Shown piece after piece: positions 2,962 to 9,094 of a DNA stretch of 46,227 nt; position 1 is the stretch's first letter; every line of letters begins with the position of its first letter. The notes below the pieces were generated by a model. The model saw nothing but the letters and a program-made list of their open reading frames with translations. It searched no databases and was not told the origin of the DNA. Source of the stretch: Oscillospiraceae bacterium (GTDB lineage: Bacteria; Bacillota; Clostridia; UMGS1883); contig JAFLUQ010000001.1 in assembly GCA_022508735.1 (NCBI GenBank), forward strand, positions 1-46,227, written 5' to 3'. A program made the position numbers and the translations under genes.

Positions 2962-3465
2962 ATGTTTGAAAGAGGAAAAGAATTTGTGGCCCCCAAGGCC
3001 AAAACCTCAGGTGAAGTCGCTATAATTGCGATAGCCTGGGTGGTGGTGATAGCCATTGTAGCCGTTATAATCAAGTGGGTGTCATTTGTAGGCGGCATCA
3101 GCGCATTCCTGGTAGTTGTGCCCATATACCTGATGAAGCTTTTTACACGCGAATATGCCTATACTCTCACGGGCGATAAGCTCACCGTTGAGATCGTAGA
3201 CTTCAAACAAAAGCGCACTCCGGTGGGAAATCCTGTGTTCCTTGAAGACATGGAGGTGTGTGCCAAGGTGGATGACGCGGCCCATAATGACGCGCTTAAG
3301 GCTACATATGCCCAGGTTATAGAGGGCAGAACCTCTCCCAAGTCCAAAACGGCCTGCTTTGCCGCCTTTGAACGTGACGGCAAGCGCAGTCTCGTATATT
3401 TTGAGCCGGTGGATATGTTCGTTGATGAGCTGAAGAAGTATGCCGGAGCGAAGATATTCATCTGA
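2962..3465 (+). CDS. hypothetical 2-TM membrane protein with a soluble C-terminal domain
   Basis: ATG behind AGGAGG. Two hydrophobic helices are visible (VAIIAIAWVVVIAIVAVII and ISAFLVVVPIYLM). I recognise no family. It is the first gene of the coupled operon. Confidence 0.55.
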   Translation: MFERGKEFVAPKAKTSGEVAIIAIAWVVVIAIVAVIIKWVSFVGGISAFLVVVPIYLMKLFTREYAYTLTGDKLTVEIVDFKQKRTPVGNPVFLEDMEVCAKVDDAAHNDALKATYAQVIEGRTSPKSKTACFAAFERDGKRSLVYFEPVDMFVDELKKYAGAKIFI

Positions 3466-3486
3466 AATATTTTGGGGTGATGTGTA

Positions 3487-4296
3487 ATGAACAAACGTAT
3501 AATATCTGTGCTTCTGGCAGTGCTGCTCATTATGGTAGCGGTCGGAGCCTTTGCGGCGAGCTATACCTATGGCTCCGGAGACCGCTATACTTCTGCCGAG
3601 CTGGTGAGCAAATTTGAACAGCTTACCAAAGGAATTAGTGTCGACAGGCGTAGCCCCGGGGAGTCTGATGGTGATGCTGACAATGAAGAAGGAAACTATG
3701 TCTATGTCAGCGCCGATGCCTTTGTTATCGGCGGAGGCTTTATCATGAACCCGATAAAGATCGAGCTTCAGTCTGGCGACACAGCGGCCTCGGTGTTTAA
3801 GCGCGCCATGGAGCTGTCTGAAGTTAACGGTGAATATAGCGGCAGCGAAAATAACGGCTTTTATCTTCGCAGCCTTGAAAGCAGCGGCTTTGAGGTGAAT
3901 GTTGAACCGGGGCTCGAGGGATGGCTGTTAAATAACGACATCGTAAGCTTCTACGAGCCGGACTCCTGGGTGGGCGGAAATCTCGGAGAATCCGATATAA
4001 CCGACCTTTCCGGCTGGCTGTTCTATCTTAACGACGGATCGCCGTCTATGGGTATGTCTGACTGCAATGTCCGCGCCGGTGACGTCATAAGTCTTCGCTA
4101 TTCCATCGCTGGCGGTATGGATCTCGGAGGCGACACCTTTGGCGAAGTGACAGAGCCCTATACCCAAAAGATAAATCTTGTTAATTTTATTCGTGCCATA
4201 GCTGACAGAGAGCTGAACTATTTCTCCTGTGCGGATATCGTTAACAGAGCCGGAGTGACACAAAGTGAAATCAATGACATACTGCGCGGTATATAA
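3487..4296 (+). CDS. secreted DUF4430 (transcobalamin-like C-terminal beta domain) protein
   Basis: Signal peptide MNKRIISVLLAVLLIMVAVGAFA. The DUF4430-type block is LSGWLFYLNDGSPSMGMSDCNVRAGDVISLRYS, preceded by an FVIGGGFI..IELQSGDTAASVF segment. Confidence 0.72.
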   Translation: MNKRIISVLLAVLLIMVAVGAFAASYTYGSGDRYTSAELVSKFEQLTKGISVDRRSPGESDGDADNEEGNYVYVSADAFVIGGGFIMNPIKIELQSGDTAASVFKRAMELSEVNGEYSGSENNGFYLRSLESSGFEVNVEPGLEGWLLNNDIVSFYEPDSWVGGNLGESDITDLSGWLFYLNDGSPSMGMSDCNVRAGDVISLRYSIAGGMDLGGDTFGEVTEPYTQKINLVNFIRAIADRELNYFSCADIVNRAGVTQSEINDILRGI

Positions 4297-6915: not shown

Positions 6916-8498
6916 AAAATATAGATCTGTCTGTAAGCAGCGGCGAAATTCTGCTGCTGTACGGTGAAAACGGCTGCGGTAAGACGACATTGCTGAGTCT
7001 CATTAAACAGGAGACCGCTCCAAAGGGAGAAAGCTCCGGAGAGCTGCTGCGAGGCTTTGAGGCAGGCGACGCGGGGCTTGTGATGCAGAATCCGGAAATG
7101 CAGATAGTGACTGACCGGGTCTGGCATGAGTTGGCCTTCGCCTGCGAAAACCGAGGCTGGAGCCGCGCGCGGATACGCCAAAGAGTGGGCGAGACTGCGG
7201 CCTATTTTGGCCTCGAACCCATCTTCCGGCGAGACACGGCCTCTCTCAGCGGCGGGCAAAAGCAGCTGCTCAACCTGGCGGCGGCCACCGTTACCGGGCC
7301 GAGGCTGCTGCTCCTTGACGAGCCCACCGCTCAGCTTGATCCGCTGGCCGCGGAGAGCTTCATGAACACAGTTCGGCGCATGAACAGAGAGCTGGGCATA
7401 ACGTTCATTATCTGTGAGCACAACACCGAAAATGTTTTCTCTATGGCCGACAGAGTGGCCTATATGGAGGGCGGCGAGATAAAGGCAGTGCTTCCCCCGC
7501 GGGAGATCGGCCCGAGGCTTGCCGGAAAGCCAATGTTCGGCGGCCTGCCCTGTGCGGTGAGAATAGGCTCACAGCTGAAAAGCCCTGTTTTAACCAATAT
7601 AGAGGCACGGGAACTGATAGGCCGGTATAGCGGCCCAAAGAGGCCGGGCAGCAGTTCGGCTAAGCCTATAGGCGAAACGGTCATGGAGCTTAAAAACGTT
7701 TCCTTCCACTACGAACAGAAGGGGGACGACGTGCTCCGCGGCGTCAGTCTTGAGCTGAAAAAAGGAGAAATATTTTCCATTCTCGGAGGGAACGGAGCGG
7801 GAAAGAGCACCTTGCTCTCGGTAATGGCAGGGCTGCGCGCGCCAATGGGTAAGGTATTATATAAGGGTAAAAATCTGAAAAGCTATGGCGCCCAGCTCTA
7901 TCGCGGGAATATCGCCATGCTGCCCCAAAACCCTCAGGACTGCTTTGTCAGTGACACTCTTAAGGGCGACTTTGATCATATGGCTGAGGTCTGTGACTAT
8001 GGCGACTATACCGCGCTTATAGAACGGCTGGGGTTATCGGGCAAGCTGAGCAGCCACCCCTATGACCTGAGCGGTGGTGAGCAGCAGAGGGCTGCCCTCG
8101 CTAAGGTGCTCATGAGCCGCCCTGAGCTATTGCTTTTGGACGAGCCCGGCAAGGGGCTTGACGCCGTCGGCAAGGCGGAGCTTATGAATATACTTCGCTC
8201 TTTGGCCAAGGAGGGGAAGACAATTGCCCTCGTCACTCACAGCACTGAGCTGGCCGCCGATATCAGCGACCGCTGCGCTCTGCTGTTTGACGGCGAAATT
8301 ATTTCCGCCGCGCCGCCCGAGGAATTTTTCGGTAGTAATATCTTTTTTACCACTCCGGCTGCAAGAATAAGCCGCGGCATCTTTGAAAACGCGGTTACGG
8401 CAAAAAAGATAGTTGAGCTTTGCCAGCGCGGGGCTGGACCCATGCGCCCTTCGGGCGGTTGTAGCCCCCACCAACAGAAAAATGGTGCAAAATCATGA
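6852..8498 (+). CDS. fused duplicated ECF/ABC ATPase (EcfA-EcfA')
   Basis: Two complete ABC cassettes are present. The first has GENGCGKTT / LSGGQKQ / LLLLDEPTAQLD / CEH. The second has GGNGAGKST / LSGGEQQ / LLLLDEPGKGLD / VTHS. TTG start gives MEILSFKNFSFTY. Confidence 0.9.
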   Translation: MEILSFKNFSFTYRGANDPALKNIDLSVSSGEILLLYGENGCGKTTLLSLIKQETAPKGESSGELLRGFEAGDAGLVMQNPEMQIVTDRVWHELAFACENRGWSRARIRQRVGETAAYFGLEPIFRRDTASLSGGQKQLLNLAAATVTGPRLLLLDEPTAQLDPLAAESFMNTVRRMNRELGITFIICEHNTENVFSMADRVAYMEGGEIKAVLPPREIGPRLAGKPMFGGLPCAVRIGSQLKSPVLTNIEARELIGRYSGPKRPGSSSAKPIGETVMELKNVSFHYEQKGDDVLRGVSLELKKGEIFSILGGNGAGKSTLLSVMAGLRAPMGKVLYKGKNLKSYGAQLYRGNIAMLPQNPQDCFVSDTLKGDFDHMAEVCDYGDYTALIERLGLSGKLSSHPYDLSGGEQQRAALAKVLMSRPELLLLDEPGKGLDAVGKAELMNILRSLAKEGKTIALVTHSTELAADISDRCALLFDGEIISAAPPEEFFGSNIFFTTPAARISRGIFENAVTAKKIVELCQRGAGPMRPSGGCSPHQQKNGAKS

Positions 8499-9094
8499 GC
8501 AATAAATATCTTTTGATTGCCATAGGGCTTTCTATTATAATATGTATTCCGTGGTTCGTAATGTACGAACGGAAAAAGGCTTCGGTCACCGAGGCGGTGA
8601 TCGTGGCGGTGATGGTGGCTTTTTCCACCGTCGGGCGCATTGCATTTGCGGCCTTTCCTCACTTTAAGCCCGTGACGGCCCTTGTGACTGTCGCCGGTGC
8701 GTCTCTCGGCCCGGGCGTGGGCTTCGTCACCGGTGCGCTGACAGCGGCGGTGTCGAATCTGTACTACGGGCAGGGCCCGTGGACAGTGTTCCAGATGGCG
8801 GGCTGGGGAATTATAGGTATGATTTCCGGTATTTTCGGGGAACATATCAGGAGCAGTTCTCTTCGGCTTGCCGCCTTCGGCGCCATGGGCGGAGTGGTGT
8901 TTTCCCTGATCATGGATGTTTACACCCTGCTCTCTACCGATGAGATGTTTAACGGCGGCAGATTTCTGTTTTACGCTGCGGCAGGCCTTCCGGTGACGCT
9001 CACCCATGCCGTGAGCAGCGCGGTATTTCTTTTGATTCTGGGAAGACCGTTTTGTAGAAAACTATCACGCATAAAGCGAAAATATATCGATTGA
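8495..9094 (+). CDS. ECF transporter substrate-capture (S) component-like membrane protein, specificity unknown
   Basis: ATGA overlap with the ATPase gene. 199 aa with about 6 predicted helices and small-residue-rich TM segments (VTALVTVAGASLGPGVGFVTGAL, WGIIGMISGIFG). Size, position and topology fit an S component. The family was not identified. Confidence 0.6.
   Translation: MSNKYLLIAIGLSIIICIPWFVMYERKKASVTEAVIVAVMVAFSTVGRIAFAAFPHFKPVTALVTVAGASLGPGVGFVTGALTAAVSNLYYGQGPWTVFQMAGWGIIGMISGIFGEHIRSSSLRLAAFGAMGGVVFSLIMDVYTLLSTDEMFNGGRFLFYAAAGLPVTLTHAVSSAVFLLILGRPFCRKLSRIKRKYID

Follow-up and report, generated by a model that had tools for sequence, protein, structure and literature searches.

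A CbrT-family ECF importer operon with a probable split, transcobalamin-like capture set in an Oscillospiraceae genome

Introduction

Do some Gram-positive bacteria capture corrinoids outside the cell with the separate parts of a transcobalamin, and pass them to an importer of the energy-coupling factor (ECF) class? This question is raised by seven tightly packed open reading frames (ORFs), g1 to g7, at 2962-9094 on the + strand of a 46,227-nucleotide (nt) stretch of DNA, hereafter the window, from a metagenome-assembled Oscillospiraceae genome. In order, their products are a DUF6106-like protein with two transmembrane helices, a secreted DUF4430 protein (a-type), a tail-anchored toroid protein, a membrane-anchored DUF4430 protein (b-type), EcfT, a fused EcfA-A' ATPase and an S component. 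A preliminary description of the locus had read this series as a seven-gene operon in which the two halves of a transcobalamin-like binder are encoded as separate proteins beside a dedicated importer, and had left the ligand open. All seven ORFs are present on the + strand at the coordinates it had listed.

Here, we conclude that the locus probably encodes a dedicated (group-I type) CbrT-family ECF corrinoid importer with a split, membrane-tethered transcobalamin-like capture set. As judged from sequence comparison, the ligand is most likely cobalamin, another cobamide or cobinamide, because the S component is nearest to CbrT, the synteny is conserved, and orthologous operons stand behind cobalamin riboswitches. 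The class of protein involved has been noticed before. Burroughs et al. (2007, PMC1796856) described transcobalamin-like proteins of the beta-grasp fold that bacteria secrete or carry on their surface. A toroid is often part of the same chain, a second paralogue often occurs in the operon, which also holds CbiO/CbiQ-like genes, and the hosts usually lack B12 synthesis; the authors predicted a role in B12 scavenging.

Results

The last of the seven products, g7 (8495-9094, +), is a CbrT-like ECF S component. Among the ECF S-component families of Pfam it matches PF07155 with 37.1 bits, and g7 and CbrT match the same two broad Pfam families. Searched as a single sequence against the PDB, it returned one significant match, 6fnp_A (E 2.8e-8). 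A profile of g7 and 37 orthologues recovered this chain over its full length (E 1.8e-18, 70.5 bits), which puts it 48 bits above the second-best S component, 4hzu_S (22.6 bits, E 8e-4). The matched chain is a 182-residue membrane protein found in entry 6FNP alone; since this entry holds the structure of ECF-CbrT, we take the chain to be CbrT. Both cobalamin and cobinamide are substrates of CbrT, without competition from hemin (Santos et al. 2018, PMC5997447); its prediction as a B12 S component goes back to Rodionov et al. (2009), as cited in PMC5997447. The preliminary description had considered that the S component might belong to a family proven to carry another substrate; g7 instead adjoins the S component for cobalamin and cobinamide.

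The remaining importer genes precede g7. The product of g6 (6852-8498, +) is a fused EcfA-EcfA' ATPase with two ABC cassettes, matching PF00005 twice (E 1.3e-54), TIGR04520 at residues 5-219 (E 3e-85) and TIGR04521 at residues 279-496 (E 4e-79), the last two with scores under their equivalog cutoffs, as expected for a fused chain. The public gene call starts this gene at 6912; we prefer the TTG at 6852, because it is preceded by a Shine-Dalgarno sequence (AAGGAGAG) and completes the ABC domain with its first strand, and the ECF_ATPase_1 model fits from position 2. The transmembrane coupling subunit, g5 (6037-6915, +), is very likely a CbiQ-type EcfT, though weak by sequence score: it reaches 20 bits against PF02361, below the cutoff of 25, its PDB matches are EcfT chains alone (5d3m_D, 4hzu_T and 4huq_T) at weak E-values of 0.004-0.007, and its position is conserved in 55 loci. 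The identities proposed earlier for the ATPase and the S component were upheld, and that of EcfT is very likely. We take CbrTUV to be the name for an ECF transporter type with a CbrT-family S component. At the far end of the window (44253-46157), a gene for BirA (biotin ligase/repressor) is followed by one for BioY with no adjoining ECF module. The genome probably holds a shared ECF module elsewhere, besides the dedicated one described here.

The gene combination is conserved in related genomes. A search with a toroid alignment of 19 sequences, taking one genome per species, gave 80 toroid loci, each from a different species; almost all of these species carry labels of Clostridia-type organisms. 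Where at least 5.5 kilobases (kb) of downstream sequence was available (57 loci), EcfT and fused ATPase genes lie beside the toroid in 43, and the S gene as well in 41; the order toroid, b-type DUF4430, EcfT, EcfA-A', S is kept in 40 of these 41. The fuller arrangement, with the a-type DUF4430 gene ahead of the toroid gene, recurs in dozens of Clostridia species.

Many of these loci are under cobalamin riboswitch control. At the Rfam gathering score, a cobalamin riboswitch was found in 15 of 30 loci scanned, each time 5' of the module and in the orientation of the operon. A custom covariance model built from seven Rfam matches identified one, always on the + strand, in 41 of the 80 loci, and an Rfam recheck of its weaker matches confirmed six out of seven (all but L036). 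Such a riboswitch is found in 28 of the 43 ECF-bearing loci. Fourteen loci have no ECF genes within 10 kb; the a-type gene and the toroid are kept in 12 of them, and a cobalamin riboswitch of their own is present in at least two of the 14. Further layouts were observed along the way. In about 25 loci a second, larger toroid protein is encoded upstream, in many directly after the riboswitch (L019, L026, L030, L034, L039, L040, L046, L051 and about 17 others), so that they hold two toroids and two DUF4430 proteins; the larger toroid protein of L051 has 1057 amino acids, with Big_3 and GLUG domains. L020 has two cobalamin riboswitches (9429-9605 and 17508-17720), one ahead of the toroid/ECF operon and the other past the S gene, ahead of a second pair of a-type DUF4430 and toroid genes.

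We turn to the capture proteins. DUF4430 is the C-terminal domain of TCN (transcobalamin) proteins (PMC4350170), which upholds the equation of the two made in the preliminary description; the link draws on Pfam/InterPro, on published PSI-BLAST and HHpred results and on fold comparison. Both proposed DUF4430 products exceed the PF14478 cutoff of 23.8 bits. The b-type protein, g4 (5507-6040, +), has an N-terminal signal-anchor transmembrane helix and matches the full model with 59.5 bits, and its gene abuts g3 in the same frame. The a-type protein, g2 (3487-4296, +), is secreted, with a signal peptide (AFA/AS) and a transcobalamin beta-like domain; its 26.9 bits come from the C-terminal half of the model only (positions 32-71). 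It is nevertheless a paralogue of g4 across the whole domain (BLASTP E 9e-7), from which it differs by an insert of about 35 amino acids and a C-terminal extension of about 60. It had no match in PHROGs. Predictions of signal peptides and transmembrane topology agree with those first put forward.

The two DUF4430 copies are not interchangeable. We built hidden Markov models (HMMs) from the upstream (a-type) and downstream (b-type) copies of related loci; g2 scores 140.5 bits with the a-type HMM and 46.0 with the b-type, and g4 scores 196.5 bits with the b-type and 54.5 with the a-type. The paralogues form two cleanly separated orthogroups. The b-type protein is small and membrane-anchored, is the copy that is fused to the toroid in natural fusions (below), and is encoded directly 5' of EcfT, with a median of 63 nt between match ends. 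The a-type gene lies 5' of the toroid gene, and its product is often a large multidomain surface protein (492 amino acids in L051). A separate case was seen in an uncultured Ruminococcus sp. (L014, 8211-11368), where a cobalamin riboswitch precedes a gene for an a-type DUF4430 protein with LRR_5 and a type I dockerin, followed by that for a toroid protein, with no ECF genes within 10 kb; this points to a B12 binder presented on a scaffold of the cellulosome type.

Between the two DUF4430 genes lies g3 (4265-5506, +), whose product comprises a signal peptide, an alpha/alpha toroid (residues ~31-292), an acidic Ala/Glu/Pro linker and a C-terminal transmembrane anchor (385-412), which together place the toroid outside the cell. 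The repeats of prenyltransferase/squalene-cyclase type ascribed to it earlier are borne out in part: the quoted motifs are present and the toroid fold is confirmed, while the Pfam match to Prenyltrans (PF00432) stays below cutoff (20.8 bits against 26.5), as does that to PF13243. An AlphaFold2 model of the ectodomain has a pLDDT (predicted local distance difference test score) of 96.1 and a pTM (predicted template-modelling score) of 0.93. Its best Foldseek matches are 8paj, 8zg0 and 6o60_B (E ~1e-5), its fold matches being squalene-hopene cyclase, drimenyl-diphosphate synthase and prenyltransferase beta subunits; by sequence, phmmer matched 7xr7 (E 1.3e-6). Judging by this model, the toroid fold is real. 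In the alignment of the toroid family, the Asp and Thr of a DPDVTA motif are invariant at the place where class II terpene cyclases carry DxDDTA, and a His in a GGFAH repeat is invariant as well. Transcobalamin uses a His as an upper axial ligand of cobalt, a part that the GGFAH His might conceivably also play.

Whether toroid and DUF4430 belong together as transcobalamin halves can be judged from nature's own fusions. Among the toroid homologues there are five in which toroid and b-type DUF4430 form one chain (P0042, P0054, P0065, P0066 and P0067). Their layout is signal peptide, toroid, linker, transmembrane helix, short Lys/Arg loop, transmembrane helix and b-type DUF4430, which is the expected product of reading through the abutting, in-frame g3-g4 junction. 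The transmembrane hairpin leaves both domains outside the cell, and the domain order, alpha then beta, is that of transcobalamin. In a PDB-wide Foldseek search with an AlphaFold2 model of P0066 (pLDDT 88.5), matches 1 to 15 are all transcobalamin, haptocorrin or intrinsic factor, with both domains aligned (E 2.5e-8 to 2.5e-6, 524-559 aligned columns); after them come terpene cyclases, whose matches, at E 4.5e-5 or worse, cover the toroid only. The placement of the two domains relative to each other is uncertain in this model, given its pTM of 0.66. In the modelled fusion, the architecture of transcobalamin, an alpha/alpha toroid followed by a beta domain, is shared. With both DUF4430 matches above cutoff, a real toroid fold and natural fusions, of which the one modelled matches B12 carriers, the proposal of a split transcobalamin-like module is supported.

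The layout of the operon is largely as first described. For five of the seven ORFs the public annotation of the source contig makes the same call; the other two start later there, at 6912 and 9106. The junctions GTGA at 6037-6040 and ATGA at 8495-8498 and the abutting TAG/GTG at 5504-5509 were confirmed base by base, and the gap between g1 and g2 is 21 nt. Two junctions can be added: g2 and g3 overlap by 32 nt (4265-4296), and g5 and g6 by 64 nt if g6 starts at TTG 6852. The sigma-A-like promoter proposed at 2905-2933 (+) is a sigma-70-type promoter-like site, TTTACA-17-TAAAAT with an extended -10 TG, and is the best match in 2700-10600 (10/12). The leader between it and g1 is only about 25 nt, which leaves no room for a riboswitch upstream of g1; the ribosome-binding site of g1 is strong, with the Shine-Dalgarno sequence AAAGGAGG.

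Within the operon, a scan for terminator-like sites marked a GC-rich 11-bp hairpin with a T-run (4301-4326, +), 5 nt past the g2 stop and within the Ala-rich signal-peptide codons of g3. It is a perfect palindrome with a minimum free energy of -26.2, where shuffled sequences give -14.9 +/- 2.8. In L006 and L008, too, the a-type gene is followed by a hairpin of this kind with a T-run, but none is clear in L005, L007 and L009. From its sequence and position, this hairpin may be a candidate intra-operon attenuator setting the ratio of secreted binder to membrane components.

The first gene, g1 (2962-3465, +), encodes 167 amino acids, with a hairpin of two transmembrane helices (by hydropathy) and a C-terminal soluble domain. 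The protein itself had no match in Pfam at E<=0.01 and none in NCBIfam or PHROGs, and its best PDB match, with E 0.7, is not significant. PF19601 (DUF6106) is matched by 43 of 47 g1 homologues (best E 3e-11), and we therefore place g1, which alone does not match, in this family as a divergent member. A DUF6106 gene is tied to the module solely in the five closest relatives of the window (L005-L009). The searches run found no cobalamin riboswitch in these five loci or in L001, and the linkage of DUF6106 gene and module is confined to the clade without this riboswitch. The traits of the window's clade are riboswitch loss, a DUF6106 gene at the head of the operon and a hairpin behind the a-type gene, and a regulatory role for g1 might be conceived. 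In L005 (7805-9136), a gene for a 443-amino-acid PQQ_2-type beta-propeller lies between the DUF6106 and a-type DUF4430 genes and overlaps both. BtuG of Bacteroides is a beta-propeller B12 binder, and by analogy the L005 protein could be a candidate further binder.

Downstream of g7, an ATG 11 nt past its stop opens a gene for a polysaccharide deacetylase with an N-terminal repeat region (9106-10389, +; PF01522 at 8e-34). The terminator-like scan found no site in the 11-nt gap. As a deacetylase gene also lies 3' of the S gene in L007-L009, three close relatives, the transcript may hold eight genes with the deacetylase as a possible eighth cistron; its role is probably unrelated to the module. 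The rest of the window encodes sporulation, germination, cell-wall and surface proteins and BirA-BioY. It includes two adjoining giant LRR_5 (BspA-type) surface proteins at 10424-15177 (-) and two adjoining SLH-domain proteins of about 1000 amino acids at 25156-31231 (+), a neighbourhood rich in surface proteins in the genome of a spore-former (SpoIID, SpoIVA, GerA/B/C and SASP).

Discussion

In this study, we observed the domain identities of the seven-gene locus, the relationship of its S component to CbrT, the conserved synteny, the riboswitch control of orthologous operons and the toroid-b-type fusions. Beyond these, we infer ligand binding by g2, g3 and g4, an order of hand-off and distinct roles for the DUF4430 paralogues. 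The tail-anchored toroid g3 and the signal-anchored b-type g4 would stand side by side on the membrane and clamp the corrinoid between them, as do the alpha and beta domains of transcobalamin. The secreted a-type g2 would be an additional, more distal binder feeding this clamp. From there the ligand would be handed to the CbrT-like S component g7, which would topple in the membrane, powered by EcfT (g5) and the fused EcfA-A' (g6).

A more far-reaching version of this scheme, which we put forward tentatively and consider rather unlikely as a whole, is that the three extracytoplasmic proteins constitute a Gram-positive cobamide relay, analogous to BtuG/H/J/K of Bacteroides and assembled from the pieces of a split transcobalamin. 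In this relay, the a-type protein would be released and serve as a distal 'corrinophore'; in relatives it bears dockerin, leucine-rich repeat or Ig-like surface modules. The cobamide would pass to the toroid and b-type clamp, joined by its transmembrane helices, and the clamp would load CbrT. In the clade of the window, a plain promoter and the DUF6106 membrane protein would take the place of riboswitch control, and the hairpin behind the a-type gene would govern how much distal binder is made relative to clamp and transporter.

Several observations weigh against a corrinoid importer with transcobalamin-like capture proteins. The window has no cobalamin riboswitch by Rfam or by the custom model; none appeared when Rfam was applied to the whole window at its gathering threshold or to 2600-3700 at E<=10, in agreement with the preliminary description, which had seen none upstream of the operon. 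Nor does the 46-kb window contain B12-dependent or B12-biosynthetic genes. In the relatives, the riboswitch alone is no proof of corrinoid transport, because cobalamin riboswitches also control cobalt transporters. On the side of the capture proteins, a profile of 38 b-type sequences found no transcobalamin, intrinsic factor or haptocorrin in the PDB at E<=10, and a single-sequence search with b-type DUF4430 gave chance asparaginase matches only. PF01122 had no match among the window proteins, and there was no profile-level sequence match to the eukaryotic carriers. The P0066 model aligns to these carriers with target-normalised TM-scores of 0.36-0.50 and a root-mean-square deviation of 14-20 Å, and does not reproduce their closed holo sandwich. 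The g3 model reaches transcobalamin (4zrp_A) only at rank 47 (E 3.9e-4), behind terpene cyclases and prenyltransferases, so that the toroid alone is not specifically transcobalamin-like. Finally, the one analogue that has been tested genetically, an operon of Lactobacillus sakei, had an effect on heme uptake.

This last point deserves attention, as the L. sakei operon Lsa1836-1840 resembles our locus by its description: it, too, has an S component, a fused A-A', EcfT and separate transcobalamin beta-like and alpha-like secreted proteins, but in reversed order (S, AA', T, beta, alpha), with a single beta-like protein and a heme phenotype. Its deletion lowered heme uptake at micromolar hemin (Verplaetse et al. 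2019, bioRxiv 10.1101/864751), with a 5-8 fold loss of 57Fe-hemin uptake at 5-40 µM, and overexpression raised uptake. Toroid and DUF4430 could then be a hemophore-like surface pair, as proposed for L. sakei, serving the import of heme or another planar tetrapyrrole, and the riboswitch loss in the window's clade would fit such a change of substrate. We regard this as improbable here, as orthologous operons are controlled by cobalamin riboswitches, the S component is nearest to the one for which hemin is no competitor, the effect in L. sakei was seen only at micromolar heme, and no heme-related gene lies nearby in the window. A quite improbable alternative is import of cobalt, or of a lower ligand or another small precursor of cobamides, with the surface proteins in a separate role, for example adhesion or keeping B12 from competitors without import. 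The wider regulatory range of cobalamin riboswitches would allow it, g5 and g6 match 'cobalt transport' families, among others, in Pfam and NCBIfam, and the persistence of the a-type and toroid pair in ECF-less loci implies that the binders can work without an ECF transporter. Yet the S component is CbrT-like and not CbiM/N-like, and the close spacing of the b-type and EcfT genes ties the capture proteins to the importer.

The toroid might also be an enzyme, a terpene cyclase or prenyltransferase, with the ECF system handling an isoprenoid or another bulky, lipid-like molecule. NCBI names the protein 'terpene cyclase/mutase family protein', its top sequence and fold matches are the cyclases and prenyltransferase subunits listed above, and the invariant Asp and Thr sit at the class II cyclase site. 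However, the motif reads D-P-D-V-T-A in g3 where drimenyl-diphosphate synthase has D-V-D-D-T-C, which leaves the DxDD general-acid motif incomplete. The protein is also exported and tail-anchored outside the cell, has a single toroid of about 260 amino acids, always has DUF4430 proteins and a CbrT-like ECF system as neighbours, often under a B12 riboswitch, and when fused to DUF4430 best matches cobalamin carriers in structure. We therefore rejected an active terpene cyclase, on grounds of motif, location and context, and hold the enzyme explanation to be highly improbable.

How does the proposed corrinoid importer compare with known systems? The description of the SLBB beta-grasp clade by Burroughs et al. 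fits this locus in its secreted or surface DUF4430-type domains, toroid, second paralogue and CbiO/CbiQ proteins, and in the predicted B12 scavenging. That survey was purely computational, predates CbrT, and reported neither riboswitch control nor a division into a and b orthogroups; riboswitch control, the a/b split and the fusions through a transmembrane hairpin are new here. The statement in the preliminary description that no experimental characterisation of such a Gram-positive module was known is too strong: the class was predicted in 2007 and the L. sakei deletion study exists, so the novelty was overstated. In the literature, we came upon no bacterial member of the class for which corrinoid binding is reported.

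The closest relative of known substrate is ECF-CbrT from Lactobacillus delbrueckii (6FNP; PMC5997447), whose S component is homologous over its full length and which has the same EcfT and two ABC ATPase domains. By analogy, the importer described here would share its substrates, cobalamin and cobinamide. The energizing module is dedicated here, in the same operon and with its ATPases fused, whereas CbrT of L. delbrueckii uses a general, shared ECF module. Its gene cluster is nrdJ-cbrS-cbrT-pduO, and PMC5997447 mentions no toroid or DUF4430 partner, in contrast to the three extracytoplasmic accessory proteins that precede the importer here. The eukaryotic transcobalamin, intrinsic factor and haptocorrin combine the same two folds in the same order; in our locus the halves are separate polypeptides with one transmembrane tether each, an extra beta paralogue is present, and delivery would be to an ECF transporter instead of an endocytic receptor.

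An analogous logic, with several surface binders, a riboswitch-controlled locus and a membrane transporter, is found in BtuG/BtuH/BtuJ/BtuK of Bacteroides thetaiotaomicron (PMC6143338; PMC13616437). Unlike the proteins described here, BtuG, BtuH, BtuK and BtuJ/DUF4465 are outer-membrane lipoproteins. The Bacteroides Btu surface binders feed the TonB-dependent BtuB. A 2026 review calls cobamide capture by BtuH/BtuJ homologues in Gram-positive Firmicutes 'entirely uncharacterized'.

Conclusion

Gut bacteria compete for cobamides, and import is a necessity for most Clostridia-type commensals. Their extracellular capture by Gram-positive bacteria lacks an experimental description, for which this locus and its relatives, found in 80 species, offer a concrete and conserved candidate. 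Its existence will not surprise the specialist; the value lies in making an idea of 2007 testable, since the parts are small and separable and can be expressed and assayed. The relationship to transcobalamin also bears on the proposed bacterial origin of the B12 carriers of animals (PMC1796856).

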